Origin: Anaerolineales bacterium
Lineage (GTDB): Bacteria > Chloroflexota > Anaerolineae > Anaerolineales > UBA4823
Direction: 5' to 3'
DNA: 64,000 nucleotides
Assembly: GCA_034434515.1 (NCBI GenBank)
Contig: DAOTZA010000110.1
Span: 20,429-84,428 of the forward strand
In this document: positions 3,997-62,873 of the stretch, in pieces
Position numbering within the stretch: position 1 is the first letter of the stretch
Layout: every line of letters starts with the position of its first letter
Position numbers and translations under genes: made by a program
The notes under the pieces: model-generated
Databases searched by the model: none
The model's input: the letters and a program-made list of their open reading frames with translations, nothing else
Told to the model about the DNA's origin: nothing

Positions 3997-4018
3997 CTCA
4001 CACTCTCCTGTAAATTCT

Positions 4019-6355
4019 TTAATGACCGAAAACTTTTGCTGCAATAGCTACCTGCCCTACTGAAATGCCACCGTCGTTCGCCGGAACATCTCGATGAGTC
4101 AATACCTGAAACCCTGCTTCTTTCAACAACTCAAAAGCCTGTTCCAATAGCGTTATATTTTGCCACACTCCACCACTCAGGGCAATCGATTGAATACCAG
4201 TCTCTTTGCGGATCATCTGACAGACCTCCAAAACAATCTCCGCTATAGTGCGATGAAAACGCCCTGAAATGATTGCCGGCGAAACACCATTAAGAAAATC
4301 ACTTAAAATCGATTGAATCGTCTTGACTACACTGATTTGGACAGGTAACTTGAACCCGTCTTGAGCAAATAGCAAGTCATAAGGATATGGAATTTTTCTC
4401 TCTTTTGAATAAATTGCTTCCAATTCGATAGCCGCTTGCGCTTCGTAATTGATTGACTGACGCACGCCAATCAGGGAAGCAACTAGATCAAACATTCTGC
4501 CCATACTGGAGGTGTTGACTAGGTTAATCTTATGATGTAATTGGGAATGAAGCAGTTGGCGTTCATCGGCGCAAAGGGCTTGAATAGGCGGAAGGTTCTC
4601 TGGAGTTTCTATTCCAAAATATTCAAGATAAGCCAAGGCAATCCGGGCCGGAAACCGGATTGAACGGTCTCCGCCTGGCAGAGGGAAATATTGCAGATGA
4701 GCTGCTCGTGTATAAGTATGATAAGAGGCAATCAAAAACTCTCCACCCCAAATTGCTCCATCATCACCATACCCTGTACCGTCGAATGAAACGCCGATGA
4801 TTGGGTCATCTGTTTGCCAATCATTATCAGCTAAACAACTGGCAATATGGGCGTGATGGTGTTGAATGGCCATGCAGGGGATTTGCTCTTGTTGTGAGCG
4901 CTCAAGAGCATAGCGAGTAGATAAATAGTTTGGATGCTTGTCGTGTGCTATGACTTCCGGTCGGATGCGGAATAAAGTTTGATAATGCTCGATTCCCTCC
5001 TCAAAAGATTGGTACGTTTCGTAATTCTCCAAATCACCAATATGATGGCTGAGGAAGGCATATTCATCCCGAGTCAGGCAAAAGGTATTTTTTAATTCTG
5101 CACCAACTGCTAGGATTTGAGGAACTTTCCAGGGCAGACGTAGCGGATTCGGAGCATAACCACGCGATCTTCGAACGGGGTAAAAATGAGGCTCATTACC
5201 AAGTGAAATTGAACGGACAACCGAATCATCACAGCGGACGTGAATCGGTCGGTTGTGTAGCAAAAACGCATCTGCAAGGGGTGCTAATTGAGCCAGCGCC
5301 TGATCGTTATCGATGGCAATCGGCTCTTCGGAAAGATTTCCACTGGTGAGAACGATCGCTTCCACAGGATATTCATGGTAAGCCTGCTGGTCAAAATTAT
5401 AGAACAACAAATAGTGCAATGGGCTGTAGGGTAGCATAACGCCCAGGAAATTCTGCTTCGGAGCTGTGCCAGGGACAATGGATGAACCTGGTCTTTTCGG
5501 CAATAAAACAATTGGACGTTCTCTGGAGGTCAATAACTGCATCGCGGCTGGGGTGAGAAAACAATGCCGCTCAACAACTTCCAGATCGGGCATCATCAGT
5601 GCAAAGGGTTTATCCACCCTACGCTTACGTTCACGTAATGTGGCAACTGCCTCAGGGTTTTGGGCATCACAGGCGAGGTGAAAGCCACCAATGCCCTTGA
5701 TTGCCACAACACGACCAGCTTTGAGCAGTTTTTGAACCGCGCGAATTAGATCAACATCCGCGCTGTTTGTGACTTCTTGCCCGCCGATCACCAGGCTCAG
5801 GTGAGGCCCACAGACTGCACAAGCTACCGGTTGAGCATGAAAGCGCCGATTTTCCGGGTCGTGGTATTCAGCAGCGCAATCTGGACATAATGGAAAGCCT
5901 GCCATGGTAGTATTCGGACGGTCATAGGGGATCGTCTTTGTTATCGTAAAACGCGGGCCGCAGTTTGTGCAGTTGATAAAGGGGTAGAGATATCTGCGAT
6001 TTTGCGGGTCAAAAAGTTCCTGTAAACAATCTGCACAGATCGAGATGTCGGGAGAAATAGGAATAAAAGCCGTCTCGATATCTTGGGACTCGATGATTTC
6101 AAACTTAGTGAAATGATTCTCGGCGACAGGCGTAATTTCGATTTGATCAATCCGAGAAAGCGGTGGTGCTTCCACACTTAGCCGGTCGATAAAATGGGCA
6201 ATAGCCTCTTCTTGTCCTTCAACGAGAATCTCAACCCCTGCGCTGGTATTTTTAACCCAGCCAAGCAAATTTTCCTGATGAGCTAATTTATAAACAAAAG
6301 GCCGAAAACCAACACCTTGAACAATACCAGTAATACGAATATACCTACCAGCCAT
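4019..6355 (-). CDS. hypF: carbamoyltransferase HypF
   Basis: 778 aa with an acylphosphatase-like N-terminus (RITGIVQGVGFRPFVY), two CxxC-x18-CxxC zinc-finger pairs, and YrdC-like and Kae1-like domains. Confidence 0.95.
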   Translation of the reverse strand: MAGRYIRITGIVQGVGFRPFVYKLAHQENLLGWVKNTSAGVEILVEGQEEAIAHFIDRLSVEAPPLSRIDQIEITPVAENHFTKFEIIESQDIETAFIPISPDISICADCLQELFDPQNRRYLYPFINCTNCGPRFTITKTIPYDRPNTTMAGFPLCPDCAAEYHDPENRRFHAQPVACAVCGPHLSLVIGGQEVTNSADVDLIRAVQKLLKAGRVVAIKGIGGFHLACDAQNPEAVATLRERKRRVDKPFALMMPDLEVVERHCFLTPAAMQLLTSRERPIVLLPKRPGSSIVPGTAPKQNFLGVMLPYSPLHYLLFYNFDQQAYHEYPVEAIVLTSGNLSEEPIAIDNDQALAQLAPLADAFLLHNRPIHVRCDDSVVRSISLGNEPHFYPVRRSRGYAPNPLRLPWKVPQILAVGAELKNTFCLTRDEYAFLSHHIGDLENYETYQSFEEGIEHYQTLFRIRPEVIAHDKHPNYLSTRYALERSQQEQIPCMAIQHHHAHIASCLADNDWQTDDPIIGVSFDGTGYGDDGAIWGGEFLIASYHTYTRAAHLQYFPLPGGDRSIRFPARIALAYLEYFGIETPENLPPIQALCADERQLLHSQLHHKINLVNTSSMGRMFDLVASLIGVRQSINYEAQAAIELEAIYSKERKIPYPYDLLFAQDGFKLPVQISVVKTIQSILSDFLNGVSPAIISGRFHRTIAEIVLEVCQMIRKETGIQSIALSGGVWQNITLLEQAFELLKEAGFQVLTHRDVPANDGGISVGQVAIAAKVFGH

Positions 6356-19296: not shown

Positions 19297-20280
19297 TTAA
19301 GGTTGGTTGAAAATCTCATGATAACCGCGGTCCAACTCATCATCCGAAAGGTGAGCATAGCGTTGAGTTACAGTGATCGATTTATGCCGAGCCAATTCTT
19401 GAGCCAGTTTGATATTTCCACCCGATCCCAATAAGACCGCAGTTACAAAATAATGGCGAAAAGAATGAGGGGTAATCGTTTCCGATGCTTCATCTCCCAA
19501 AGCTATCTTTACATGCTGGTCTATGATTTGTCGCCCGGTGGTAGTTGAAATAGGCTTAATTTTTTTACCAGCCCCACGATCGTGACGGGCAAAAACGGGC
19601 AATGCGCCAATAGGCTTACCCGAAGCTCCATCGAACGGAGAACGCTCGGTCAGATATTCTTTGATTGCCTGCAAGCAACGCGTCGAGAAGCGGACAACAG
19701 CTTGCTGATCGCCTTTCCCGATAATGATAGCCTTTTGTTCTGCCCAGTCGAGATCACCGCGGCGCAAATTACAAGCCTCATGAATGCGCAAACCAGTATC
19801 AGCAAGCGTAAGGATCAGCGCCCGATCCCGTAAGAGCCGCAATCGCTCATTGGTTTTTTGAGGTAACAGTGATGTAAGATTTATTGCATATTCTATTATT
19901 TTCTCTATATATTTTCTGGGAAACTGGGGTAGGCGCTGGCCTGAACGACGTGACCGCTGTCGGATCAGAAGACGTAGATTGGGCAAATTAATCTCAATAA
20001 GTTGCGAAGCAGCCAAAAATTCGTAGAAGCGATAAATCGCTGTCAAATACAATTTTTCGGTAGCTGGGGTATAGGTACGCAGATCATCCAAGCAATCCAG
20101 GATAGCGTCTGGTTTTAGCGATGAGATTGGTGGATCTTGGAGTTTTGATTTATCCTGGATAGTTTTTTGAAAGAAGGATAGGGCATTGGCATAACTGCGG
20201 TAGGTATTTTGGCTTCTTGAGCGCTGAATCATCGCCAGGAAGTCATTCACTGCTTCTGAAAATTTAATCACTTCACTCAT
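19297..20280 (-). CDS. tyrosine recombinase / phage-type integrase
   Basis: Catalytic signature ADTGLRIHE (Arg), HSFRHYF (His-x-x-Arg) and ARHKSITVTQRYAH (His, Tyr). Start taken at MSEVIKF (ATG 20280). The longer ORF-track N-terminus is hydrophobic junk. Confidence 0.85.
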   Translation of the reverse strand: MSEVIKFSEAVNDFLAMIQRSRSQNTYRSYANALSFFQKTIQDKSKLQDPPISSLKPDAILDCLDDLRTYTPATEKLYLTAIYRFYEFLAASQLIEINLPNLRLLIRQRSRRSGQRLPQFPRKYIEKIIEYAINLTSLLPQKTNERLRLLRDRALILTLADTGLRIHEACNLRRGDLDWAEQKAIIIGKGDQQAVVRFSTRCLQAIKEYLTERSPFDGASGKPIGALPVFARHDRGAGKKIKPISTTTGRQIIDQHVKIALGDEASETITPHSFRHYFVTAVLLGSGGNIKLAQELARHKSITVTQRYAHLSDDELDRGYHEIFNQP

Positions 20281-36060: not shown

Positions 36061-36137
36061 GGTGCCAGTAGCTCAATTGGCAGAGCATCGCACTGTGGAT
36101 GCGAGGGTTGTGGGTTCGAGACCCATCTGGCACCCCA
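36061..36137 (+). tRNA. tRNA-His (anticodon GUG) with encoded G-1 and 3' CCA
   Basis: Manual cloverleaf: G-1 plus GTGCCAG/CTGGCAC, D arm GCTC/GAGC, anticodon stem TCGCA/TGCGA with loop CTGTGGA, T arm GTGGG-TTCGAGA-CCCAT, C73, and CCA. Confidence 0.92.
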
Positions 36138-36153
36138 AGATACGGTTACCCCC

Positions 36154-36180
36154 ATCCCTCTATAGAGGGATTTTTTATTT
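36154..36180 (+). terminator. rho-independent terminator after tRNA-His
   Basis: ATCCCTC-TATA-GAGGGAT hairpin followed by TTTTTTATTT. The T-run overlaps the stop codon of the convergent gene. Confidence 0.7.
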
Positions 36181-37062
36181 CATTTCAAAGAAAAGTGCCT
36201 GGCGCATCTCGTGGATATGCTGCGGTGAGCTACCGCAACAAGCTCCAATTAACTTTGCCCCGAGATGACGCACGCTTTGGGCATGTTCCGCCATGACCTC
36301 TGGCAAACCATCATAAACCACTTTTCCATCCACTAGTTTAGGTATTCCGGCGTTAGCTTTAGAGATAATGGGTTTTTGACAACCTGCTTTGTGCATGCGA
36401 TCAATGACCGCTTCTAATTCTTGAGGTCCTTTGCCACAATTTGCCCCAACAGCACTCAACTCGAGCTCGTTGGCGAGTTGAACCAATTGCTCAGGCGTGA
36501 CACCCATCATCGTCCGCCCTTTGCTCTCAAAGGTCATGGTTACAGTAATCGGAAGGCGGGTGACCAATCGCGCCCCCTGAACAGCCGCTTTTACTTCTTG
36601 CAGGTCGGCCATTGTTTCAATCCAAATCACATCCACTCCGCCGCTGGACAATCCTGCAGCCTGCTCTGCGAACGCTTGAACTGCCGCTTCATAGGTCAAT
36701 TTTCCAAGCGGCGCCATCAGTTCGCCGGTCGGCCCCATTGATCCCGCAACAATAACGTTTGGATATTCATCGGCTACTGCGCGGGCTAATTCGGCTGCAG
36801 CAAGATTAATGTCGCGCACGCGGTCATCTAACCCATGTCTGCTCAGGCGGAAACGATTACCTCCAAATGTATTGGTTAGGATAACATTGGCCCCAGCCTC
36901 GATATACGCGCGATGAATTTCTTTCACCACCTCCGGATGCTCAAGATTCATCTTTTCAGGAGCTTGTCCGGCTTCCATGCCTTTTGACATCAACATCGTA
37001 CCCATTGCCCCATCCAGAAGTATCACTGTGGCTTCGGATAATAATTTTTCAAATTTATTCAT
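36175..37062 (-). CDS. homocysteine S-methyltransferase-domain protein (stand-alone MetH N-terminal-like)
   Basis: 295 aa. MGT...L, the GANVILTNTFG motif, and the zinc ligands GANCG and GACCGSSP are typical of the Hcy-binding S-methyltransferase domain. Confidence 0.8.
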   Translation of the reverse strand: MNKFEKLLSEATVILLDGAMGTMLMSKGMEAGQAPEKMNLEHPEVVKEIHRAYIEAGANVILTNTFGGNRFRLSRHGLDDRVRDINLAAAELARAVADEYPNVIVAGSMGPTGELMAPLGKLTYEAAVQAFAEQAAGLSSGGVDVIWIETMADLQEVKAAVQGARLVTRLPITVTMTFESKGRTMMGVTPEQLVQLANELELSAVGANCGKGPQELEAVIDRMHKAGCQKPIISKANAGIPKLVDGKVVYDGLPEVMAEHAQSVRHLGAKLIGACCGSSPQHIHEMRQALFFEMK

Positions 37063-37111: not shown

Positions 37112-37183
37112 TGGCGAGGGTGGGATTTGAACCCACAACCAAGGGCTTATGAGTCCCCTGCTCCACCATTGAGCTACCTCGCC
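37112..37183 (-). tRNA. tRNA with CAU anticodon (elongator Met or Ile2; not initiator), CCA not encoded
   Basis: Reverse complement folds as GGCGAGG / TA / GCTC-AATGGTG-GAGC / A / GGGGA-CTCATAA-GCCCT / TGGTT / GTGGG-TTCAAAT-CCCAC / CCTCGCC / A. The G1-C72 pair argues against a bacterial initiator. Positions 31-39 are an A/G mismatch. Confidence 0.82.
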
Positions 37184-37323: not shown

Positions 37324-38745
37324 TCAACTATTTGGCACAATTAATTCGTGAATAGCCCGCACAGCCCTTTGTTCATCAGCGCGATCGATGACCAGGGAAA
37401 TGGATACCTCCGATGAACCCTGAGCAATTGCAATGACATTGATCCCATTTGCACCTAATTTGCCGAAGATCCGTCCGGCAATGCCAGGTGTGCTGCGCAT
37501 CGCAGCCCCAACAATCGTAACAATCACGACCTCGTCGGTTGCCCAGATGCGATCAATGTCTCTGGTCGCCAATTCCCGGCTAAAAGCTTCATTCAAGGAT
37601 CGCAAAACAGTTTCAACAGACTTTTGCGGAACCGCAAAGCAAATCGATTGTTCTGAGGAGGCTTGCGTAATCAAGGGAACGCTCGTCCCGGTAGCTGCAA
37701 CAGCGCCAAAAGCTCGTGCGGCAACTCCGGGTACCCCTAGCATACCACGCCCCTCGATGGTCACCAGAGATTGCCCCTTGATTGAAGTTACCGCTTTGAT
37801 TACGCCATTGGTTTGCTTATCGTTCTCCACGGTCAAGAGAGTACCTGGATGCGAAGGGTTAAAGGTGTTCTTTACTCGAATAAGAATCCCGGCATCAATC
37901 AAGGGTTGCATGGTCTTGGGATGAACAACCTTTGCCCCATAGTAAGCCAGCTCACCGATTTCCCGAAAAGTCAACACATCAATGGTGGTTGCCTCTGGAA
38001 CAATCCGCGGATCGGCTGTCATCACACCATCGACATCCGTCCAAATCCAAACCTCCCTGGCCGGTAAACAGGCGCCCAATAAAGCTGCCGAGTAGTCACT
38101 GCCTCCGCGTCCAAGCGTAGTGGTAGTTCCATCCTCAGTCGCTGCAATGAAACCTGTCACAACCGGCACAATTTTGGAGCTTATTACAGGTAACAGCATT
38201 TCTTTGACTTTACGCTCCGTTTTTTCTCGAATCGGGTGAGCAGCTTGATAGGCGCTATCGGTCACAATCAACTTTGTAGCGTCCATAGACCTGGCTGAGA
38301 TTCCGCTAGCGTTTAAGTATTCAGCGAAAATGCGCACACACAGCATTTCACCAATCCCAGCGATCGCATCCAGGACGCGTGGCGTAGCTTCTCCAATGAT
38401 ATCAATCGCCCGACAGTATTCAGCAAACATGCTGATCAACTGATCGATTTGTTGCTTAACAAAGACTTTCCGTTCGGTCTCTTTAATTAGATCGTCCACT
38501 ACTTGATAATGTCGAGTAGTCAGGGCGCCGGCAATTTGTAAAACCTGATCATAGCGGCGATTTTTTGCCATTTCCGTGGAGCGAAGCAAATCATCGGTGA
38601 CTCCGGACATGGCTGATAAAACCACTACTGGCATCCATCCTTCCTTGATAGTGTTCTCTACAATACCTTTGACACCTGTCATTGCCTCGCTACTGCCAAC
38701 CGATGTACCCCCGAATTTCATTATTAGAAGTGGCTTATCTTTCAT
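37324..38745 (-). CDS. aspartate kinase (monofunctional, two C-terminal ACT domains)
   Basis: KFGGTSVG N-terminus, GRGGSDYSAALL, and WTDVDGVMTADPR. The ATG overlaps the upstream stop as ATGA. Confidence 0.93.
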   Translation of the reverse strand: MKDKPLLIMKFGGTSVGSSEAMTGVKGIVENTIKEGWMPVVVLSAMSGVTDDLLRSTEMAKNRRYDQVLQIAGALTTRHYQVVDDLIKETERKVFVKQQIDQLISMFAEYCRAIDIIGEATPRVLDAIAGIGEMLCVRIFAEYLNASGISARSMDATKLIVTDSAYQAAHPIREKTERKVKEMLLPVISSKIVPVVTGFIAATEDGTTTTLGRGGSDYSAALLGACLPAREVWIWTDVDGVMTADPRIVPEATTIDVLTFREIGELAYYGAKVVHPKTMQPLIDAGILIRVKNTFNPSHPGTLLTVENDKQTNGVIKAVTSIKGQSLVTIEGRGMLGVPGVAARAFGAVAATGTSVPLITQASSEQSICFAVPQKSVETVLRSLNEAFSRELATRDIDRIWATDEVVIVTIVGAAMRSTPGIAGRIFGKLGANGINVIAIAQGSSEVSISLVIDRADEQRAVRAIHELIVPNS

Positions 38746-41621
38746 CGTTCGTTCTCCTTGACAGAAATTACTGTTTGTCCTTCAAGTCGCCTGGCAAAAG
38801 CGGATAAAACCTCGTAGTAAGGCTTTATGCTGGGAATATAGTGTTTTTCGTTATACCCATGAGGATCAATACCACTCTGACCCCACACAACTCCCTGACC
38901 CGCTGGCGCAAAACGAGCGCTTGTAGCAGGTAATTTTTTGCCTATCCTGGGCGGCTCTTTGGCAACCTCTTGATACGCCTCCAGTAAAATCCGTAAATAG
39001 GGGTTTTCCGGACTGCAACGTATCCCTTTTTCGCATACCTTCAAGTGAAATTCCAGTTCATTTTGACGACATAGTTCTTCAAGATTCTTTACCAGTTCAT
39101 CGACATTTTCTTCAGGGATTGGGCGAACCTCTACACCCATAATAGCAAACTCTGGTGAGACATTGTACAAGCCCTCTTCCCCAATGCGCACAAAAGGTAT
39201 TTGAAATTGAGAATTCCACCGATCCGGGTTAGAAAGCTGGAGACTGCGCTGGAAAAGCTCAATCATTTTCTGCCGGAAGTCAAACAACTTGGCAGGCAGG
39301 TCTGCCTTTACCAGACTTCCAACAGAAGTTTGGCTCGTATGCGCCCGTGTGCCCCGCGCAATAATGTCAAACCGCATGATCCCTCGGTTGGAGGTACAGA
39401 TCTCACCCAGCAATTCATCGCCTTTTTCGCCAGTTCGCTCACCAGCAATAAATAACTCCGGTAAGGGGTATCCTTCGTTGCCAATCTGAGCCAAAACATG
39501 AGGTGTCCCCATCGGTTCAAACTCGCCATTTTCTTCATTGCCAACCAATAAAAGATTTACGGCTGGGTATGGTTCACTCTGCATTAGGCGGTCTTTGAAC
39601 CACACCAGATAAGTGGCTACCACTGTTTTCATATCCGCTGCCCCTCTACCGATAAGATAGTCTCCCTCTAAACGAGGCTGGAATTGAGATTCATCTGGAG
39701 CAGGTTGCACAACATCGAAATGTCCACTTAAAGTAACCGGGACATAAAGATGACCGGGGAATCCGATCAGTAAGGCAGGATATTTGTGTTTGTTGAAATA
39801 GCGAACTTCCAGGCCACTTCTTTCAGCATAGTTACAAATAAACGAAGCAGCAGAAGCCACATCTTCCAATCTCTCATTCGTACAGGCAGTTACGGATGGA
39901 ATTTGGATGAGTTGCATGGCAAGGTCAACGATTTCTGAGGTCTTATCAGCATAAACTTTGATGACTTGTAGCGGTCGCACCGGCTTAAATGAGATGGGAA
40001 TATTGGGGTATTGACGATACTCATCGCGACCGCGTTGGATCAGGTTCTCCAATTTATTTACCTCATTCCCCAAACGATAGAGTTCACCTTGGATCGTGGC
40101 GATATCGTTCTTGACCGCTTCTTCACGCTCTTCGGCTAATCTCTGTAAATACTCAAGGGGGATCTCGTCGACCTCGCCCAGTTCCTGCAAAACACGCCGA
40201 CGGATCTTCTGGGAGGTATTGGGTGCACCCTTTGACATTTCGACCAAGGGGTTAAGGAATGAAGTCATTTCTAACCCCTCTGCCAGTGGCGTGACTTCTT
40301 CCAAAACCCATCCCAAAAATTCCCGCACTCTGATGGGTTTCCCACTGAGAGGATTTTCGATTTCGGCATCTAGGCCATGGCGAGCAGCTTTTTCTTCATT
40401 GCGCCTAGCGCGCTCAATATCTTCTGTATCATACCGAAAGCTCACCGCAAAGGATGGATCGCTATAAAAACGGAGCAATAGAAGATATTTTAGAGTCAGA
40501 TTTGCCAAATCCGTCTCCATGTCATGTCCCCCCTCGTCACAGCGTACCTCAACCCTGGACATCGGGATATTAATCCGTGCCAGGAGATTCTGTTTTTCAA
40601 TTTCTCTTGCCATTTCTTCAGCTTGATCGTCTTTGCTAGCGGTGTAAAGACCTCGTGCATATAATTGGCGCAATTGGTCGGAGGTGATCGCGATCAAGCG
40701 CTCTACCGGTTCAGAAAAGGAACGCGCCCGAACCGGAGTCCAGTTGTTATTTCCAAATCGAATCCCTTTACGAACCAACTCATAAGAAATGCGCAAATAG
40801 TCCTCATATGAGCGATATAGGCCAGGCAAATCCAACAAAATGGGATTCGGAAAGGTCATGTTGCGAACCGAATCGGCTTTGGCGAGAACAATTACCTGCT
40901 TTCCGTTGCGATACTGGCTGACAAAGGGCGTCGAAGCGGTTGTCGCAATGAAAAGGGCTGCAAAAGCTCTGAGCAGTCGCGTGGAGCGGATATACACATA
41001 ATTTTTATATTCGTCGAGATGCTGAAAAGGTTGACTGATATGGTTGGCTAAATTTTGATTTTGGTGGACAAAATCCCAGGAGAGCAAAGTTTCTGGTAAA
41101 GAAAGATTTGTATGGATTCCCGCTGTCGCTAAGGCTGCTCCATATAAATCCACACATCGCTCAAGGTAACGTCGTTTGGCTAAATTCCATGAACCTGGGA
41201 TACAATCCTTGCCAAACTGGGGTTGAAAGAGCAAGTTTCCATGCCAGTAATAAAACCTTTCGCCAAATTTTTCGCTGGCTTGATGTAGGGCATTAATTAA
41301 GACCGCCTCCAATATTCTTGACTCATATACAGCTCCAATCAAATGATAATAGGGTCGCGTTGCCCACTCGATCATCCAGTGATAGACCTCTAATTGAGAT
41401 AGGGATCGGAAGGAAGGCGGTAGAATTTCATCACGCAGATAATCCACAAACGAAATCCGTTCCGGGCCTGACCCAACTGTCAATAGCGGCCAGAGACGCG
41501 AGTCGAGCATATTCCACTCTAGCTCATAACCGCAGATGCCGCTTTGTGGATTGGTCTGCTCTGCTACTTCTAGAGCATGACGAAATTTTTCCACAAACAA
41601 ATTTGGCTGATAATCACTCAT
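38742..41621 (-). CDS. fusion protein: GshA-like ATP-dependent carboxylate-amine ligase (N-terminal ~560 aa) + M20 metallo-amidohydrolase (C-terminal ~400 aa)
   Basis: N-terminal landmarks are GYELEWNML, MIEWATRP, AGIHTNLSLPE, NNNWTPVRARSF and RVEVRCDEGG, compared by memory with E. coli gamma-glutamylcysteine ligase. C-terminal M20 metal motifs are SGHFDVV, GRGAADMK and GNEENGE. Start at ATG 41621 behind GGAGG, overlapping the aminotransferase stop (ATGA). Confidence 0.75.
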   Translation of the reverse strand: MSDYQPNLFVEKFRHALEVAEQTNPQSGICGYELEWNMLDSRLWPLLTVGSGPERISFVDYLRDEILPPSFRSLSQLEVYHWMIEWATRPYYHLIGAVYESRILEAVLINALHQASEKFGERFYYWHGNLLFQPQFGKDCIPGSWNLAKRRYLERCVDLYGAALATAGIHTNLSLPETLLSWDFVHQNQNLANHISQPFQHLDEYKNYVYIRSTRLLRAFAALFIATTASTPFVSQYRNGKQVIVLAKADSVRNMTFPNPILLDLPGLYRSYEDYLRISYELVRKGIRFGNNNWTPVRARSFSEPVERLIAITSDQLRQLYARGLYTASKDDQAEEMAREIEKQNLLARINIPMSRVEVRCDEGGHDMETDLANLTLKYLLLLRFYSDPSFAVSFRYDTEDIERARRNEEKAARHGLDAEIENPLSGKPIRVREFLGWVLEEVTPLAEGLEMTSFLNPLVEMSKGAPNTSQKIRRRVLQELGEVDEIPLEYLQRLAEEREEAVKNDIATIQGELYRLGNEVNKLENLIQRGRDEYRQYPNIPISFKPVRPLQVIKVYADKTSEIVDLAMQLIQIPSVTACTNERLEDVASAASFICNYAERSGLEVRYFNKHKYPALLIGFPGHLYVPVTLSGHFDVVQPAPDESQFQPRLEGDYLIGRGAADMKTVVATYLVWFKDRLMQSEPYPAVNLLLVGNEENGEFEPMGTPHVLAQIGNEGYPLPELFIAGERTGEKGDELLGEICTSNRGIMRFDIIARGTRAHTSQTSVGSLVKADLPAKLFDFRQKMIELFQRSLQLSNPDRWNSQFQIPFVRIGEEGLYNVSPEFAIMGVEVRPIPEENVDELVKNLEELCRQNELEFHLKVCEKGIRCSPENPYLRILLEAYQEVAKEPPRIGKKLPATSARFAPAGQGVVWGQSGIDPHGYNEKHYIPSIKPYYEVLSAFARRLEGQTVISVKENER

Positions 41622-42934
41622 AAGGCCTCCAGGCTCTTCAAACCTTGAACCAGGCGTTCCAAAGCGCCTAACGTTCTTTCTACTGGTGTCGCATAAGAGA
41701 AGCGGATCCATTCTCCGCCATAAGCAGAGAAGAACGCACCCGGTACCACCGCTAAACCAAATTCTTCAGCAAAATACTGGCCCATCGGTTCTGTATCTGT
41801 CCACCCCTTTGCTTTCAACCACGCTCCAACATGGATAAAAGCATAATAACCTTTCCCCAGTATGTACTTGAACTGATGTTTATCCAGGAATTCTTTTAAA
41901 GCCTTGCGGCTGGCATTGGTAGGCTCGACAATGGGTTTGGAAGCTTTATCATACCCCATCTGATAAGCTGCCATAGCTACCGCCAAAGAAAAATACGGTG
42001 GCATGACCGTATGCGATGCCCGCGAAACGATGAACTTAATCACTTCTTCTGAAGCAATTAAATGACTATTGCGGATATTCGAACCACCCAGGCTTTTGGT
42101 TATTCCATCCAAAAATATTAACCGCTTTCGTTCCTCTTTTGTAAAATATTGTAAGAAGGAATTAAGATCCATGGGCTGTTCATCCGTCACGTAATGGTAC
42201 ATCCAATCAAACAACACGAATGCCACCCCAATCTCTAAAGCTTTCTTTGCCAGGCTGACTTGCCTTTCAACCGATAATGTCAATCCGGTTGGATTATCAG
42301 GATTGGTAATAACCAAACAAGCAACCTTGCGTCCCAGTTTGGCTGCATAATCCACACATTCCTGAATGCTCTCCTCAGTATATGCCCAGCCATTTTCTGG
42401 TTCTCCAGGGGCATAAAGGACATTTGCGCCAATTCCATAAGGTCCCCAATTGTAGGAAATCCAAGGCACTCTGGAAACGATGATCACGTCGCCAATGCGG
42501 CCGTATCCAAGCGATAGCATCGCTTGATAGGCTTTTACCAAAGCATCTCGCCCCCCGGCTGTACCAACTACATTGGCCGGCGTAATTCCCAACGGAGAAT
42601 CAAGTTTCCAGTAATCTTCAATCACCGAACGACGGAAATCATCTGTCCCGTAGGGCATATCGTAGGATGTCCCATGTTTGATTTGCATTTCGGCGGCTTT
42701 TTCTAGGATTTCTGGCAGGACTCCAGGCAAGCTGGCGCCTCCATCTCCTTGAGACGCATCGAAAATGGGCTGTCCGGGATATTTCTCTTGAAAAACCTTC
42801 AAAGATTTATTAATCAGGAACATTCGCGAGGGAGGAATGTCCATCATTTTTCTCAAATAATCATTGACTGGGATTAAGTTCTCCTGAGGAACTGCGAAGA
42901 CCGGTTGATCAAGGGGGGCAAGATTTTCCATCAT
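41618..42934 (-). CDS. divergent class I/II pyridoxal-phosphate aminotransferase, substrate unknown
   Basis: TNPDNPTG and the Lys motif GITKSLGGSNIRNS. An unusual N-terminal FDASQGDGGASLPG replaces the usual GEPDF motif. Confidence 0.85.
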   Translation of the reverse strand: MMENLAPLDQPVFAVPQENLIPVNDYLRKMMDIPPSRMFLINKSLKVFQEKYPGQPIFDASQGDGGASLPGVLPEILEKAAEMQIKHGTSYDMPYGTDDFRRSVIEDYWKLDSPLGITPANVVGTAGGRDALVKAYQAMLSLGYGRIGDVIIVSRVPWISYNWGPYGIGANVLYAPGEPENGWAYTEESIQECVDYAAKLGRKVACLVITNPDNPTGLTLSVERQVSLAKKALEIGVAFVLFDWMYHYVTDEQPMDLNSFLQYFTKEERKRLIFLDGITKSLGGSNIRNSHLIASEEVIKFIVSRASHTVMPPYFSLAVAMAAYQMGYDKASKPIVEPTNASRKALKEFLDKHQFKYILGKGYYAFIHVGAWLKAKGWTDTEPMGQYFAEEFGLAVVPGAFFSAYGGEWIRFSYATPVERTLGALERLVQGLKSLEAL

Positions 42935-42960
42935 TCACTCCTTTTCGTTTTCTTTATGAT

Positions 42961-42985
42961 AAAAAAACGCCCCAGATGGGGCGTT
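42961..42985 (-). terminator. intrinsic terminator / attenuator hairpin (AACGCCCC-ATCT-GGGGCGTT + U7) 26 nt upstream of the aminotransferase start
   Basis: Read on the minus strand: an 8-bp GC-rich stem, a 4-nt loop, and seven T. Located inside the 5' leader of the operon. Confidence 0.75.
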
Positions 42986-43014
42986 TTGGTTAATCGGTTT
43001 TCTTCACTAGCCAA

Positions 43015-43092
43015 TTAAGCGCGAACGCCCCACCGGTTTGGGTAGGTAGTGGTGGTCATCGTATTGGTGGTGGTCGCGCAGTCTGACATCAT
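43015..43092 (-). CDS. 25-codon Thr-rich leader peptide MMSDCATTTNTMTTTTYPNRWGVRA
   Basis: ATGATG at 43092 through TAA at 43017-43015. Eight of 25 codons are Thr (ACC x6, ACG, ACT), in two runs. Too short for the ORF track. Positioned between a promoter and a terminator hairpin. Confidence 0.6.
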   Translation of the reverse strand: MMSDCATTTNTMTTTTYPNRWGVRA

Positions 43093-43102
43093 ATTGGGCG
43101 CT

Positions 43103-43131
43103 AATATATCACCTGAAAAACAATCCGTCAA
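43103..43131 (-). promoter_or_regulatory. sigma-70-type promoter (TTGACG-17-TATATT) of the leader/aspartokinase operon
   Basis: Minus strand: TTGACG at 43131-43126, a 17-nt spacer, and TATATT at 43108-43103. The leader ATG is 10 nt downstream. Confidence 0.6.
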
Positions 43132-57836: not shown

Positions 57837-58424
57837 TTGTCATCCGTAAGCGTTTCTCCAACTCAGGAAGGGAGCCGGCAAAAAACGTTTCTCGAAGAGG
57901 TCATCGAAAACACCCCAGGAGATTGCCACTTGCTTAATTGTATTCAATGTGGCACTTGTGGGGGCTCTTGCCCCTCCGGTCAGGATATGGATCACACCCC
58001 GCGGGCGCTTTTTGCGATGATCTCCGCCGGGCTCAAGAAAGAAGTCCTAAAGAGCAATACCCCCTGGTATTGCGTGTCGTGCTATTACTGCACCGTACGT
58101 TGCCCTCAGTCGGTTCATATCACTGACATCATGTATACTCTCAAACGCTTAGCCGTCAAGGAAAGAGTCTATGACGACTCAAAAGCTCCAGACTTCTCAA
58201 AAACCTTTATCGATTGGGTCGAGAATTACGGTCGGGCTTTTGAGCTCGGTTTGATGTCTATGCATATGATTAAGCATAATCCATTTGGCGTTTTCAAGAT
58301 GGCCGGCATGGGGATGGGAATGATTTCTAAGGGGCGCATGGCATTTACCCCTACCCGGATTAAGGGCATAGATAGCCTAAAAGCCATATTGAACAAAGCC
58401 AAAGAATTGGAGGCAATGGCATGA
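57837..58424 (+). CDS. hdrC: heterodisulfide reductase subunit C-like (2x[4Fe-4S])
   Basis: CIQCGTCGGSCP and CVSCYYCTVRCP cluster motifs. TTG start 7 nt after GGAGG. Confidence 0.85.
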   Translation: MSSVSVSPTQEGSRQKTFLEEVIENTPGDCHLLNCIQCGTCGGSCPSGQDMDHTPRALFAMISAGLKKEVLKSNTPWYCVSCYYCTVRCPQSVHITDIMYTLKRLAVKERVYDDSKAPDFSKTFIDWVENYGRAFELGLMSMHMIKHNPFGVFKMAGMGMGMISKGRMAFTPTRIKGIDSLKAILNKAKELEAMA

Positions 58425-59389
58425 AATATAGCTACTTTCCCGGTTGTTCATTAGAACGTAACGCATCGGCATACCATATCTCCGCCATGGCGATTGCGGA
58501 GCCGCTTGGCATGGAATTTGTCGAGGTCGAAGACTGGAACTGCTGTGGAGCAACAGAATACGTCTCATTAAATCTCACTGCTTCCTATGCGCTAATTGCC
58601 CGCAATCTGGCTCAAGCGGCAAAAGAGACCAGTACAAGACAACTGGTGGCTCCCTGCAGTGCTTGTTACCTAAATCTCAAAAAGTGCGATTCTTACATGG
58701 AGGAAAGCCCCTCCCTTGAGGAAAAAATCAATACGGCTTTAGCTGCCGGCGGCTTATCCTATAAAGGTGGAACATTAAAAGTTCGCCATTTATTGGATGT
58801 AGTCGTCAACGATGTAGGCTATGAGGCAATTGCCGCAAAGGTGACCAAACCATTAAAGGGATTGCGAGTGGCTCCCTACTACGGATGCATGATTGTCCGT
58901 CCGAAACTGGGCGAAAACGGCACTTTCGACAACCCCGAATATCCGACAACGCTGGATAAACTTCTGAAAGTGCTTGGCGCCACGGTTATTGACTTTCCTC
59001 TAAAAGCTCATTGTTGCGGCGGTCACATGACCCAAATCAGTGAGGGTACCGGATTTGAACTCATCCGGCGACTCATTAAAGGCGCAACAGACTATAAGGC
59101 AGATCTCATCGTAACCCTATGTCCTATGTGCCAGCTCAACCTGGATGCCTTCCAAGGGGCAATGAATTCGCATTTCAACACAAACTATCACATGCCTGTC
59201 CTGTACTTTACCCAGATGATTGGCTTAGCCTTTGGTATGGACGCGGCTAGCTTAGGCATCGGAACAGAGCTGGTCGATGCTCGGGATGCCCTATCGAAAA
59301 TCGGTGTTGAAGTGCCAGAAGCGGAATTGGTGGTAAAGAAACCCCCCAAAGAAGCGCTCCCCATGCCATCTCTGCCGGAGGAGAAATAA
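58421..59389 (+). CDS. hdrB: heterodisulfide reductase subunit B-like (two CCG domains)
   Basis: YFPGCS...NCCGA and YYGC...HCCGGH...CPMCQ, the duplicated CCG motif. ATGA overlap with hdrC. Confidence 0.88.
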   Translation: MKYSYFPGCSLERNASAYHISAMAIAEPLGMEFVEVEDWNCCGATEYVSLNLTASYALIARNLAQAAKETSTRQLVAPCSACYLNLKKCDSYMEESPSLEEKINTALAAGGLSYKGGTLKVRHLLDVVVNDVGYEAIAAKVTKPLKGLRVAPYYGCMIVRPKLGENGTFDNPEYPTTLDKLLKVLGATVIDFPLKAHCCGGHMTQISEGTGFELIRRLIKGATDYKADLIVTLCPMCQLNLDAFQGAMNSHFNTNYHMPVLYFTQMIGLAFGMDAASLGIGTELVDARDALSKIGVEVPEAELVVKKPPKEALPMPSLPEEK

Positions 59390-59392
59390 GCC

Positions 59393-61402
59393 ATGGAAAA
59401 AGAACGAATTGGAGTTTATATTTGTCACTGTGGTAGCAATATCGCTGGAACGGTAGATGTTGCCGAGGTATCTCGCTGGGCAGGTGAAGCCCTCAAAGAT
59501 CGCGGTGTCGTCGTCTCGCGCGATTACAAATTCATGTGCTCCAGCCTTGGGCAGGAGCTAATCCAGAAAGACATCAAGGAGCAGGGGTTGACTCGGGTGG
59601 TGGTTGCGGCCTGTTCCCCACACCTTCACGAGCAAACTTTCCGGAATGCCTGTAAAGAAGGTGGACTCAATCCCTACTTATGCGAGTTAGTGTCGATCCG
59701 TGAGCAATGCTCCTGGATTCACCCAGACAAAGCGGTTGGCACTGAGAAAGCCAAGGCAATCGTCTCAGGTGGCGTCGAAAAAGTCATTTGGGATGAACCT
59801 CTGGAGCCTTTACGCGTTCCGATTAATCCGGTCACGCTGGTAGTCGGTGGAGGCATCGCCGGCATTCAGGCTGCTCTTGAAGTTGCCAATGCAGGTTATC
59901 CGGTAATTATGGTCGAAAGAGAACCATCAATCGGTGGACATATGGCTCAATTCGACAAAACCTTCCCCACTTTGGATTGCTCAGCCTGTATTTTGACACC
60001 GCGCATGGTCGAAGTTGGTTCTCATCCAAACGTTAAGCTATTTAGCTACGCAGAGGTAACCAACGTCAGCGGTTACGTCGGCAACTTCCAGGTCACCATC
60101 AAGCAAAAAGCACGCTCGGTCAACACGGACCTTTGCACCGGTTGCGGCATCTGTCAGGAAAAATGTCCAAAGAAAGTTATCGACCCCGTCTTTGAAGCTG
60201 GCTTAGGATATCGAAAGGCCGTTTACACGCCTTTCCCACAAGCCGTGCCAAAGTACCCGGTGATCGATCGGGAAAATTGCACTTACTTCATAAAGGGTAC
60301 TTGCAGAGCCTGTGAGAAGTTCTGCCCGACCGGAGCAATTGATTTTACCCAGGAAGACGAATTCTTTACCTTTGATGTAGGGCAAATCATTCTTGCAACC
60401 GGCTGGGATCTATTCGATGCCCGCCGCATTCCTCAGTATGGCTACGGACGTCTCGCAAACGTCTTTACCAGCCTTGAGTTTGAACGGCTCTCCAATGCCG
60501 CCGGTCCCACGGGCGGAAAAATTGTCTTACGGGACGGGGTGACCGTGCCGAAATCTGTGGCGATCATTCACTGCGTAGGCAGCCGCGACAAAAATTACAA
60601 CCCCTATTGTTCAGCGATCTGCTGTATGCAGAGTTTGAAGTTCGCTCACCTGGTGCATGAACGTACCGGTGCAGAAGTTTATAACTTTTATATTGATATG
60701 CGCACCCCAGCTAAGGGCTACGAAGAATTCTATCAGCGGCTACTGGAAGAGGGAACGCATTTCATCCGGGGTAAAGTGGCTGAAATCACCGATGCAGCCC
60801 GATATCCCGGTGAGGAAGGAAAACTGATTGTTCAGGCTGAGAATACCCTGTTTGGGAAACAAATGCGCGTGCCAGTAGATATGGTCATCCTTTCTGCAGC
60901 CCTTGAACCTCGGCATGACTTTAAGGAAGTAGCAAGACTTTTTGGCATTTCCTGCAGCGAGGAAGGTTGGCTTATTGAGCGCCATCCCAAGCTCGATCCG
61001 GTGGCAACCATGACAGAAGGAATTTACATTGCCGGTTGCGCCCAAGGTCCAAAAGACATCCCCGCCAGTGTTGCCCAAGGTGCCGCAGCAGCCGCTCGTG
61101 TTGTGGGCAAAATTCAACAAAAAGAGATTACTATGGAGCCAATTCGGGCCTCGATCGATCAAGATAAATGCTCTGGTTGTCGCATCTGTAATAACCTGTG
61201 TCCATTCAATGCCATTAGCTTCATTGAAGATCGGATGGTTTCTGAAGTGAATCCTGCCCTATGTCAAGGCTGCGGTACCTGTGTAGCTGCGTGTCCAGCA
61301 GGTGCAATTTCCGGAACGGTCTTTAGCGATCAGGCTATCTTGGCTCAATTAGATGGCTTACTACTTAACAATGTCAAAGCCATTGACCTGACGCCCGCAT
61401 AA
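59393..61402 (+). CDS. hdrA: heterodisulfide reductase subunit A-like flavoprotein
   Basis: N-terminal CHCGSNI cluster motif, FAD fold VVGGGIAGIQAALE, and inserted and C-terminal ferredoxin motifs (CTGCGICQEKCP, CSGCRICNNLCP, CQGCGTCVAACP). Confidence 0.9.
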   Translation: MEKERIGVYICHCGSNIAGTVDVAEVSRWAGEALKDRGVVVSRDYKFMCSSLGQELIQKDIKEQGLTRVVVAACSPHLHEQTFRNACKEGGLNPYLCELVSIREQCSWIHPDKAVGTEKAKAIVSGGVEKVIWDEPLEPLRVPINPVTLVVGGGIAGIQAALEVANAGYPVIMVEREPSIGGHMAQFDKTFPTLDCSACILTPRMVEVGSHPNVKLFSYAEVTNVSGYVGNFQVTIKQKARSVNTDLCTGCGICQEKCPKKVIDPVFEAGLGYRKAVYTPFPQAVPKYPVIDRENCTYFIKGTCRACEKFCPTGAIDFTQEDEFFTFDVGQIILATGWDLFDARRIPQYGYGRLANVFTSLEFERLSNAAGPTGGKIVLRDGVTVPKSVAIIHCVGSRDKNYNPYCSAICCMQSLKFAHLVHERTGAEVYNFYIDMRTPAKGYEEFYQRLLEEGTHFIRGKVAEITDAARYPGEEGKLIVQAENTLFGKQMRVPVDMVILSAALEPRHDFKEVARLFGISCSEEGWLIERHPKLDPVATMTEGIYIAGCAQGPKDIPASVAQGAAAAARVVGKIQQKEITMEPIRASIDQDKCSGCRICNNLCPFNAISFIEDRMVSEVNPALCQGCGTCVAACPAGAISGTVFSDQAILAQLDGLLLNNVKAIDLTPA

Positions 61403-61419
61403 TTGTGAGGAGGATAGGA

Positions 61420-61887
61420 ATGAGTGAACAATTTGAACCTGTGATCATCGGTTTCACCTGCAACTGGTGTAGTTATCGCGCCGCAGATATGGCCGGCATG
61501 GGGCGGATCAAGTACGCCCCCAATGTCCGTTTGATTCGCCTGATGTGTTCGGGACGGCTTGACCCAACCTTTGTAATCAAGGCTTTTGCTGGCGGCGCCG
61601 ATGGCGTTTTGGTATCTGGTTGCCATCCAGGAGACTGCCATTATATTGAGCAAAATTACAAAGCAATGCGTCGCTTCTATTTGCTGAAAAAACTGCTCAC
61701 CCAAATGGGCATTGAACCAGGCCGATTAAAACTCCTCTGGGCAAGTGCTGCAGAAGGGCAAATCTTTGCCGATGAAGTAACAAGATTCACCGAAGAAGTG
61801 CGCGCCTTGGGTCCGCTTCACTGGAATCCAACAGCCGCCCTGGAAGCTGAACTAAAAATCCACGAACCAGCGGAGGTGGTAGCATGA
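61420..61887 (+). CDS. mvhD: MvhD-type iron-sulfur subunit (methyl-viologen-reducing hydrogenase delta)
   Basis: IIGFTCNWCSY...RLMCSGR...SGCHPGDCHY is the MvhD/FlpD signature. GGAGG precedes ATG 61420. Confidence 0.88.
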   Translation: MSEQFEPVIIGFTCNWCSYRAADMAGMGRIKYAPNVRLIRLMCSGRLDPTFVIKAFAGGADGVLVSGCHPGDCHYIEQNYKAMRRFYLLKKLLTQMGIEPGRLKLLWASAAEGQIFADEVTRFTEEVRALGPLHWNPTAALEAELKIHEPAEVVA

Positions 61888-62873
61888 CCTCGAACGGTAA
61901 ACCAAAATTTGCCATGTACTGGGCAGCCTCATGCGGCGGCTGCGAGATCGCCGTCTTGAATATTCATGAAAAAATTCTGGATGTAGATGCAAACTTTGAG
62001 GTGGTCTTCTGGCCGGTTGCCATGGACGCCAAATACAAAGATGTCGAAGCCATGGAAGATGGCTCAATCCTGCTCACTTTATTCAACGGAGCCATTCGCA
62101 ACGACGAGAATGAACATATCGCCAAACTGTTACGGAAGAAATCTCAAATCCTGGTAGCTTTTGGCTCCTGTGCAACCGAAGGTTGTATGCCAGCTTTAGC
62201 GAATCTAACTCCAATCGAAGAGGTATTTGAAACTGCTTATTCAACGATCTCAACCGACAATCCTCAAAAAATCCATCCCCAGCCGGTCTATCAGGCTGCT
62301 GAGGGCGAACTTACGATCCCCAAACTCTATCCGATTGTGCGCACACTGGATCAGGTAGTGGATGTGGATTACTATATGCCGGGTTGTCCACCTGAATCTC
62401 ATCAAATTGCGGCTGTGATCGACTTAGTTATCGATGTCTTACAAGGTAAAGCAGTCTTGCCCCCTAAGGGCTCAACCATCGGCGCGGGCGGTTCTACTGT
62501 CTGTGACGATTGTCCGCGCAAGCGAGATGTCAAGAAAATCCGCGAGTTCAAACGCATTCAGGACATCATGCTTGATCCCGAAATCTGCATCCTGGAGCAA
62601 GGTGTGATTTGCAGTGGGCCCGCAACTCGCAATGGTTGTGGCGCTTTGTGCCCCAAAGCTGGCTCACCCTGCATCGGCTGCTATGGACCGGCGGAAGGGG
62701 TTCTGGATTACGGCGCAAGATTGCTGACGGCTGTTGCTTCGGTCATCGATAGCAACGATCCCGACGAAATTGAGCGCATCATCGAGGGCATCCCCGATCC
62801 GGCTGGAATGTTTTATCGTTTCAACCTGGGTGGCTCGTTACTCCGAGCCAGTAAAGCTGCCTGGGCAAAATAA
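61884..62873 (+). CDS. mvhG: [NiFe] hydrogenase small subunit, cytoplasmic MvhG-like
   Basis: AASCGGCE proximal-cluster motif, GSCA, and the later CPR/CxxC groups. No twin-arginine signal at the N-terminus. Confidence 0.85.
   Translation: MTSNGKPKFAMYWAASCGGCEIAVLNIHEKILDVDANFEVVFWPVAMDAKYKDVEAMEDGSILLTLFNGAIRNDENEHIAKLLRKKSQILVAFGSCATEGCMPALANLTPIEEVFETAYSTISTDNPQKIHPQPVYQAAEGELTIPKLYPIVRTLDQVVDVDYYMPGCPPESHQIAAVIDLVIDVLQGKAVLPPKGSTIGAGGSTVCDDCPRKRDVKKIREFKRIQDIMLDPEICILEQGVICSGPATRNGCGALCPKAGSPCIGCYGPAEGVLDYGARLLTAVASVIDSNDPDEIERIIEGIPDPAGMFYRFNLGGSLLRASKAAWAK

Follow-up and report, generated by a model that had tools for sequence, protein, structure and literature searches.

A ligase-amidohydrolase fusion and its aminotransferase partner, probably part of an undescribed three-step route in aspartate-family amino-acid metabolism

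Why would a bacterium join, in one polypeptide, a ligase of the kind that forms amide bonds to a hydrolase of the kind that breaks them? The question is raised by a gene in a 64,000-nucleotide stretch of an Anaerolineales genome (the window: positions 20,429 to 84,428 of contig DAOTZA010000110.1, assembly GCA_034434515.1), whose product carries a ligase domain of the glutamate-cysteine ligase (GCL) superfamily followed by an M20 amidohydrolase. An initial annotation of the sequence had proposed that a GshA-like ligase and an M20 domain are fused here in a single polypeptide, and this is borne out by hidden Markov models, by the predicted structure, by a search for similar folds, by an alignment of the motifs and by more than 1,500 homologues collinear with it. 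The fusion is, however, two thirds of a conserved triad, the third partner being an aminotransferase; neither this partner nor the leader peptide that precedes the operon figured in that annotation. Our answer is that the fusion probably provides the first and last enzymes of a three-enzyme module in core aspartate-family metabolism, and that fusion and aminotransferase together probably belong to an undescribed three-step route. The annotation knew of no described GshA-M20 fusion, and we found neither the fusion nor the triad nor the attenuator described in the literature that we searched.

The gene occupies positions 38742-41621 as a single open reading frame (ORF) of 959 aa. Coordinates and length had been given correctly, although the strand had been left unstated: it is the minus strand, and a plus-strand reading of the same interval was discarded because that strand is filled with stops. 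The longest mechanical ORF extends to 41711 (989 aa); we rejected this start because it runs into the aminotransferase gene and because the homologues are shorter. The sensible start is 41621 (MSDYQPN...), which has a GGAGG ribosome-binding site and whose ATG overlaps the TGA of the upstream aminotransferase gene (ATGA). The TGA of the fusion overlaps in the same way the ATG of a downstream aspartate kinase gene, which scores 411 bits with the NCBIfam model TIGR00657 (cut-off 209). The operon order is therefore aminotransferase-fusion-aspartate kinase, with the kinase translationally coupled to the fusion. Its features, in the order of transcription, are the following:

43103..43131, minus strand: sigma-70-type promoter of the operon, TTGACG-17 nt-TATATT, as read from the sequence.
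43015..43092, minus strand: ORF of the leader peptide MMSDCATTTNTMTTTTYPNRWGVRA, as read from the sequence.
42961..42987, minus strand: intrinsic terminator of the attenuator, AAACGCCCCA-UCUG-GGGGCGUUUUUUU, from the RNA fold.
41618..42934, minus strand: class-I/II pyridoxal phosphate (PLP) aminotransferase of 438 aa (Pfam Aminotran_1_2, E 2e-20).
40167..41621, minus strand: fusion residues 1 to about 485, predicted ATP-dependent carboxylate-amine ligase domain of the GCL/GCS2 superfamily (profiles, Foldseek, MAFFT motifs).
40017..40157, minus strand: fusion residues 489-535, long charged alpha-helix joining the domains in the AlphaFold model.
38742..39956, minus strand: fusion residues about 556-959, M20 amidohydrolase of the DapE/ArgE/CPG2 type, with a dinuclear metal site and a probable dimerisation domain (profiles, conservation).
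37324..38745, minus strand: aspartate kinase with two ACT domains, in ATGA overlap with the fusion (TIGR00657, Pfam AA_kinase and ACT).

Is the long frame genuine? Stand-alone ligase and M20 genes do occur in other phyla, as would be expected if an assembly chimera or a frameshift had merged two genes. Against this, more than 1,500 homologues matched, and the more than 120 of them that were listed are mostly full-length (935-966 aa), come from many independent assemblies and align collinearly with 97-100% of the query. When one genome per species was scanned, 180 proved to carry the fusion. Most of them are metagenome-assembled genomes of Anaerolineales and other Chloroflexota, and Holophagaceae are represented too, among them the isolate genomes of three cultured Geothrix species, G. 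oryzisoli, G. fuzhouensis and G. campi (57% identity); the closed metagenome-assembled genome CP070639.1 is another carrier. In addition, the linker helix is conserved among homologues and the GC content is even across the domain junction, with no compositional break. Collinearity, linker and uniform GC content together rule out an artefact, whose residual probability we regard as negligible. One protein of the public collection, P0185 (907 aa), is mostly an out-of-frame translation, rich in Arg, Ala and Pro, of a high-GC copy of the gene, and hence a gene-calling artefact rather than a divergent member of the family.

What kind of ligase is the N-terminal domain? The hidden Markov searches bore out only part of the initial expectation: the M20 domain passes Pfam, whereas the N-terminal domain of the window protein has no Pfam match at E <= 0.01, GCS2 included. 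NCBIfam models match it weakly and concordantly (gshA_cyano 1e-6, GshF 1e-6, YbdK 7e-5), far below their cut-offs (27.9 vs 249 bits for gshA_cyano and 27.1 vs 425 for GshF). Pfam GCS2 is on record, as a precomputed match, for most homologues of the fusion, and distant stand-alone relatives of the ligase clear it with 26-28 bits (cut-off 21). Searches of the domain against PDB chains, with the single sequence and with a profile, returned coiled-coil noise and one marginal YbdK match, and hhalign against the single E. coli GshA and YbdK sequences gave short local matches only; because these searches were uninformative, a fold search and a motif alignment were required. All of the top 50 matches listed by Foldseek for the full-length model are M20 structures, and we therefore searched with a separate model of the N-terminal domain, which is of moderate quality (predicted local distance difference test, pLDDT, 67), the full-length model giving that domain 80-95 over most blocks. 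The matches at ranks 1-13 all belong to the GCL superfamily (probability 0.90-1.00) and comprise YbdK (1tt4/1r8g), GshF (3ln7), GshA (3nzt/1v4g/2d32) and plant GCL (2gwc). The five motif pairs that had been matched by eye to E. coli GshA all align in MAFFT with that protein and YbdK: E33/E35 falls on GLERE of GshA, E85 on LLEF, H170-x-N172 on GVHYNFSLP, WTPVR298 on YAPIR and E358-V-R360 on IEVR, and hhalign independently pairs the H170 segment with that of GshA H150. Residues E33, E35, E85, H170, N172, R298, R300, E358 and R360 are invariant; six of these (E33, E35, E85, H170, E358 and R360), at the Mg-ATP/acyl-phosphate motif positions (GshA E27, E29, E67 and H150; IEVR), are so in 32 homologues. 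Judged by motifs, profiles and modelled fold, residues 1 to about 485 belong to the GCL/GCS2 superfamily. The family is narrow: of 1.84 billion representatives, those that belong to it form 141 clusters (50% identity). A further stand-alone homologue (458 aa, 43% identical to the WOR-3 type, passing Pfam GCS2) lies at 3961-5337 of locus L008, on a contig that has the appearance of a phage genome, with many short same-strand ORFs and a Macro-domain gene; neither an aminotransferase nor an M20 gene is close by.

The charged, heptad-like segment that had been noticed between the domains is modelled by AlphaFold as one long helix of 47 residues (489-535); stand-alone ligases, of 555-590 aa, also carry C-terminal sequence past the catalytic core. 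The M20 domain had been described as complete, and this holds. Pfam Peptidase_M20 covers residues 631-944 (E 2.5e-14; 54.1 bits vs a cut-off of 24.6), and the motifs SGHFDVV, GRGAADMK, GNEENGE and GERTGE are present. M20_dimer reaches 20.4 bits vs a cut-off of 21; the model has an inserted alpha/beta domain at 741-864, and G757-x3-H761, the motif assigned to the dimerisation domain, is invariant in 32 homologues. Equally invariant in this set are H634, D636, D663, E696, E697, E728 and H921/H927, of which we take H634, D663, E696/E697, E728 and H921/H927 to be the metal ligands and the general base, assigning them to the DapE residues by motif position. The closest matches in NCBIfam, PDB sequences and Foldseek are enzymes of the DapE/ArgE type and the uncharacterised structure 2RB7. 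The best NCBIfam match is a DapE family (E 7e-24), and yet the DapE equivalog cut-offs are missed widely (84.7 vs 284 bits for PRK13009; 63 vs 362 for TIGR01246), for which reason the 'DapE' names in the source databases are unjustified. As the initial annotation had pointed out, GshF differs in its fusion partner: here the C-terminal half is M20, and an ATP-grasp domain was not detected by Pfam or NCBIfam.

What acts between ligation and hydrolysis? In 66 loci, which differ in their wider surroundings, a class-I aminotransferase gene of the same strand stands immediately before the fusion (gene position -1). The triad exists in at least four independent arrangements: (i) aminotransferase-[ligase-M20] in Anaerolineales and Holophagaceae; (ii) the same order in a clade 27-31% identical to the window protein; (iii) ligase-aminotransferase-M20 in candidate division WOR-3, where the three genes are separate but adjacent; and (iv) aminotransferase-ligase-M20, again with the three genes separate but adjacent, in a clade whose named closest relatives are Candidatus Peregrinibacteria. 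The fusion is thus widespread, and its halves do occur elsewhere as separate adjacent genes, one of the points that the initial annotation had singled out for a homologue search. Between the window and WOR-3, identity is 27% for the ligase and 36-39% for both the aminotransferase and the M20 protein: the three components diverge in parallel. Conservation and parallel divergence are strong evidence that the three enzymes work together, from which a sequence of ligation, transamination and hydrolysis follows as the natural reading. The protection and deprotection cycle suggested initially gains accordingly from the invariable aminotransferase neighbour and from the three activities standing as separate genes; its gamma-glutamyl bond and its substrate we can only infer. 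The separate M20 proteins of the Peregrinibacteria-type triads are long, 515-710 aa, with insertions (L091 11655-13202, L112 11680-13311, L115 11709-13841), compared with 388 aa in WOR-3 and about 400 aa for the fused domain.

The closest solved structures to the aminotransferase are the Thermus and Thermotoga aspartate aminotransferases. All triad aminotransferases keep the PLP lysine and the alpha-carboxylate arginine, and every one of them has Arg at the position of K109 of the Thermus aspartate aminotransferase, a residue that this enzyme uses for the distal carboxylate. The matches to aspartate aminotransferase models (E 1e-22 to 1e-17) are better than those to DapL/DapC models (1e-11 to 1e-9).

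These observations bear directly on the possibility that both domains make and break the same bond under reciprocal regulation and so control how much of some gamma-glutamyl dipeptide or thiol (gamma-Glu-Cys, for example) is present, with the aminotransferase only loosely connected. The GCL-superfamily fold and motifs would suit such a role; to our knowledge every enzyme of this superfamily with a familiar activity makes gamma-Glu-Cys, and the E. coli glutathionylspermidine synthetase/amidase, a ligase/amidase fusion acting on one bond, is a precedent. However, an aminotransferase that keeps its place in 66 loci, that neighbours the other two parts wherever they are split and that diverges with them would hardly be loosely connected. 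The genomic context holds no link to thiol metabolism, with no glutathione-synthetase or cysteine-metabolism gene recurring beside the module, and the Thr/Asn-codon control described below is unconnected to it. We consider this role very improbable.

Under which conditions would the module be made? The leader peptide MMSDCATTTNTMTTTTYPNRWGVRA, encoded between the promoter and the aminotransferase gene and followed by the intrinsic terminator, has 25 codons, of which eight are for Thr, two for Asn, one for Asp and three for Met (the start codon included), and none for Lys; in related loci the leader is preceded by the same cTTGACg...ggTAT layout. Folded to its minimum free energy, the RNA of 42955-43095 (minus strand; z = -3.8) contains a 1:2 hairpin, whose 5' arm, the Ala-Thr-Thr-Thr codons, pairs with GGUGGGGCGUUCGCGC, and a 3:4 hairpin, which is the terminator. 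The 5' arm of the terminator can alternatively pair with GGUGGGGCGUU at the end of the leader ORF, and this 2:3 antiterminator is complementary at 10/11 bases, as judged by eye. Together these elements make up a leader-peptide transcription attenuator of the classic type.

Thr/Asn-rich leaders occupy the equivalent place in at least 37 related loci, with an overall composition of 21% Thr, 10.5% Asn, 4% Asp and 2.2% Lys; these 37 were chosen by eye from the outputs, and some selection is involved. A blind scan of about 1.6 Mb for terminators with a short ORF containing a residue run before them and a long ORF after them returned 48 leader-like sites, 32 of them before the triad aminotransferase, two before the WOR-3 ligase and one before an aspartate kinase. 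Operons that have no aspartate kinase still carry Thr/Asn-rich leaders, such as DANSTTTITRTR and NVTNTNTNRN, and some leaders are dominated by Asn (L056, L045). In locus L030, where the aspartate kinase is unlinked, the kinase has its own leader MNLLERGTTTTTSPTQRG, with a pure TTTTT run, and its own terminator (about 20006-20090, minus strand), distinct from the NNVNTTRNTT leader of the aminotransferase-fusion operon. The WOR-3 loci share a conserved leader, MRDNKNKDPGFLL (MRDNKNKD), also followed by a terminator; a cobalamin riboswitch just upstream of one WOR-3 triad (L092 7534-7743) precedes a TonB-dependent receptor gene and has nothing to do with the triad, whose promoter, leader and terminator are its own. 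In the Geothrix loci (L072, L079, L088 and others) a conserved GC-rich hairpin with a run of Us, GTCGCCCC...GGGGCGACATTTTCGTATC, lies between a proA-like gene and the aminotransferase gene, about 100 nt upstream of its start; because no Thr/Asn leader is evident there, regulation in Holophagaceae is apparently different. Rfam gave no relevant riboswitch or T-box match, and no lysine riboswitch, in the window or in seven distant loci, and control of those kinds was discarded. The codon bias of the leaders and the lack of a riboswitch together argue that the module is induced by shortage of the aspartate-derived aminoacyl-tRNAs (Thr/Asn) and, in Anaerolineales, would not be induced by shortage of lysine.

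The neighbourhoods point the same way, since most neighbouring enzymes make or consume aspartate. An aspartate kinase gene follows the fusion in 14 loci, directly or past a LysE-family gene, and E. coli ThrA matches the DNA of 17 loci. The hint of aspartate-family metabolism given in the initial annotation fits both the kinase in the operon and the Thr/Asn-codon attenuator. In the 27-31% fused clade the triad stands among pyrC, pyrD, pyrE and pyrF, beside an OTCace-family gene that we read as pyrB, and carA. In a Peregrinibacteria genome (L115) the order is asparaginase-aminotransferase-ligase-M20-small membrane protein-homoserine dehydrogenase, and in other Peregrinibacteria-type relatives the triad is near nadA or among purB, purE, purC and purA. 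Peribacter genomes, of the phylum Peregrinibacteria, are reported to have few amino-acid pathways, an aspartate aminotransferase and a phosphoenolpyruvate carboxylase giving oxaloacetate with 'scant' uses (PMC4736985). Separately, an exporter gene of the LysE/RhtB or EamA family often follows the fusion on the same strand (nine loci; for example L001 12863-13450 and L003 13049-13966), sometimes between fusion and aspartate kinase, and this recurrence hints that an amino acid of the pathway is exported.

Could the pair of domains instead make asparagine? In an amidotransferase-like scheme the M20 domain would cleave a donor amide, and the ammonia or amine so freed would at once be coupled by the ligase to a side-chain carboxylate, for example converting aspartate from the neighbouring aminotransferase to asparagine via an acyl-phosphate, so that the operon would make both Asp and Asn. 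Asn is the second most enriched leader codon and dominates some leaders, an asparaginase lies beside one triad, fused domains often carry out consecutive steps, and the chemistries of GCL and glutamine synthetase are related. However, we know of no M20 protein serving as the ammonia-generating half of an amidotransferase and of no ADP-forming asparagine synthetase; moreover, the strict retention of the aminotransferase would be left unexplained, and the WOR-3 order ligase-aminotransferase-M20 also speaks against it. The scheme is, in our estimate, improbable.

The main rival is chemically the neatest. In what would be a fifth variant of diaminopimelate synthesis, the ligase would use ATP to gamma-glutamylate ring-opened tetrahydrodipicolinate, in place of the succinyl- or acetyl-CoA transfer by DapD or DapH, the aminotransferase would yield N-gamma-glutamyl-LL-diaminopimelate, and the M20 domain would remove glutamate as DapE removes succinate. 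Ligase, class-I aminotransferase and M20 deacylase would mirror the established acyl-diaminopimelate steps one by one, and the best named matches of the M20 domain (NCBIfam, PDB profile and Foldseek) are DapE families. A class-I aminotransferase would need an alpha-keto-acid end, and among common metabolites we can name only 2-amino-6-oxopimelate as combining such an end with an alpha-amino one. The aspartate kinase in the operon, the LysE-family exporters downstream in some loci and the Lys codons of the WOR-3 leader are likewise in its favour. However, (i) the 37 Anaerolineales-type leaders are rich in Thr and Asn and poor in Lys, and no lysine riboswitch was found in the window or in the seven distant loci; (ii) a tblastn screen with E. 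coli proteins found none of dapA, dapB, asd, dapF, lysA and dapD within +/-10 kb of about 95 loci, the only dap, lys or thr genes linked to the module being aspartate kinase and one thrB; (iii) the neighbourhoods in other lineages use aspartate, not diaminopimelate; (iv) the aminotransferase scores higher with aspartate aminotransferase than with DapL/DapC models; and (v) the M20 domain misses the DapE equivalog cut-offs. With regulation, neighbourhoods and aminotransferase affinities opposed to it, we judge this variant unlikely. Regulation and neighbourhoods point more to aspartate supply than to a protection cycle of the diaminopimelate or lysine type. Synthesis of ornithine from glutamate semialdehyde, brought to mind by the proA-like gene of Holophagaceae, was also rejected as the main reading, because aldehydes are normally transaminated by class-III aminotransferases and because the regulation is at odds with it.

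The best reading is, in our view, an ATP-driven cycle of ligation, transamination and hydrolysis that supplies aspartate, although we hold it tentatively and at somewhat less than even confidence. The module would be transcribed only when ribosomes stall at the Thr/Asn (and Asp) codons of the leader. The ligase domain would then use ATP to form an amide conjugate, which from the precedent of its family would most likely be of the gamma-glutamyl type; the partner aminotransferase would act on this conjugate; and the M20 domain would cleave the transformed amide, the handle being recycled. The net result would be an ATP-driven and effectively irreversible transamination, its likeliest product being aspartate made from scarce oxaloacetate, which in the window genome would feed the aspartate kinase of the same operon. 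Two variants can be envisaged: the gamma-glutamyl conjugate may be the amino donor, with the M20 domain destroying the resulting 2-oxoglutaryl amide, or oxaloacetate itself may be carried as an amide. In both, transamination would be irreversible because ATP is spent. The more specific proposal of an 'ATP-driven transaminase', in which the ligase charges a recyclable handle with glutamate (or oxaloacetate), the aminotransferase shifts the amino group and the M20 domain destroys the conjugate, so that aspartate is pulled from very low oxaloacetate, is a possibility that we put forward with greater reserve.

Several points weigh against aspartate supply by such a cycle. We know of no case in which a GCL ligase and an M20 hydrolase help to make up an ATP-coupled transaminase, and we infer the order of the reactions, the gamma-glutamyl bond, the substrate and the product from anatomy and regulation. 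The nearest characterised relatives of the M20 domain are DapE enzymes, and a trio of ligase, aminotransferase and deacylase would, by analogy, reproduce exactly the logic of the acyl-diaminopimelate branch. Likewise, the Geothrix and Peregrinibacteria-type loci that were examined yielded no convincing leader peptide, the Thr bias seen in the window leader may in part be due to the co-transcribed aspartate kinase, and the gene upstream in Holophagaceae looks like proA (by eye, from its C-terminal sequence), with no involvement of aspartate. About a fifth of the probability remains for an explanation outside those considered here.

Which known systems does the module resemble? By analogy, the closest known logic would be that of glutamine transaminase with omega-amidase, and the closest known enzymes those of the acyl-diaminopimelate and LysW systems. 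(i) In the pathway of glutamine transaminase and omega-amidase ('glutaminase II'; Bacillus MtnE-MtnU), an amide-bearing donor is transaminated and the keto-amide is hydrolysed, which makes the reaction irreversible; aminotransferase and amidase genes are adjacent, and the process is ATP-driven overall if glutamine synthetase is counted. In contrast to the triad, its amidase belongs to the nitrilase family and its ligase is the general glutamine synthetase, not a dedicated fused enzyme, and the likeness supposes that the triad conjugate serves as amino donor. (ii) The acyl-diaminopimelate branches (DapD-DapC/ArgD-DapE and DapH-PatA-YkuR) also acylate an amine, transaminate and deacylate with an M20 enzyme; the triad M20 is most similar to DapE, and the triad aminotransferase shares its fold class with PatA and actinobacterial DapC. 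However, in the triad an ATP-dependent ligase of the GCL type would acylate in place of an acyl-CoA transferase, ligase and deacylase form one polypeptide, dap and lys genes are not linked, and the predicted regulation is by Thr/Asn codons, not lysine. (iii) In the LysW/ArgW systems (LysX ligase, LysJ aminotransferase, LysK M20), an amino acid is attached in an ATP-dependent manner to a gamma-glutamyl carboxylate, the conjugate is transaminated and an M20 enzyme releases the product; in these systems the ligase is of the ATP-grasp type and the aminotransferase of class III, and a carrier protein, a kinase and a reductase take part, whereas the triad has a GCL-type ligase, a class-I aminotransferase and no carrier protein gene that we could see. 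(iv) GshF (GshA with an ATP-grasp glutathione synthetase) and the YbdK/GCS2 ligases share the N-terminal fold and the Mg/ATP-binding motifs, although here the partner is a hydrolase, with ATP-grasp undetected, and the scores lie far under the family cut-offs. (v) Glutathionylspermidine synthetase/amidase likewise combines an amide-forming ATP-dependent ligase and an amidase in one polypeptide, but its folds are ATP-grasp and CHAP, it has no aminotransferase partner and its role is redox-regulatory. (vi) As in thr- and trp-type attenuators, a short ORF with a run of regulatory codons lies in hairpin arm 1, with alternative 2:3 and 3:4 pairings and a Rho-independent terminator; unlike them, the attenuator described here would control an aminotransferase/ligase-hydrolase operon, and its codon signature is Thr and Asn (with Asp and Met) in Anaerolineales and Asp, Asn and Lys in WOR-3.

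Elsewhere in the window, a homocysteine S-methyltransferase gene (36175-37062, minus strand) lies downstream of the aspartate kinase gene, with tRNA genes on either side (37112-37183, minus strand; 36062-36134, plus strand), and a homologous gene is near the module in some relatives (L003, L012, L013, L015). At 58421-62873 on the plus strand, a cluster coding for a CCG-domain protein, a large flavin adenine dinucleotide/4Fe-4S protein and a homologue of the NiFe-hydrogenase small subunit (Oxidored_q6) resembles an electron-transfer module of the heterodisulfide-reductase/hydrogenase type.

In the source databases the fusion is labelled 'M20 peptidase' or 'succinyl-diaminopimelate desuccinylase'; a metabolic reconstruction based on these labels would inherit the error. 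The three-enzyme module has its place in core amino-acid metabolism, under attenuator control, in several large groups of bacteria that are mostly uncultured, including organisms abundant in anaerobic digesters, hot springs and groundwater as well as bacteria of the candidate phyla radiation type, which are usually thought to be poor in biosynthetic capacity. If true, either reading would add a step to textbook aspartate-family metabolism, be it an ATP-dependent route to aspartate or a fifth variant of diaminopimelate synthesis; and an 'ATP-driven transaminase', if it exists, would represent a previously unrecognised piece of central amino-acid synthesis in Anaerolineales, Holophagaceae, WOR-3 and relatives of Peregrinibacteria, a phylum of the candidate phyla radiation.

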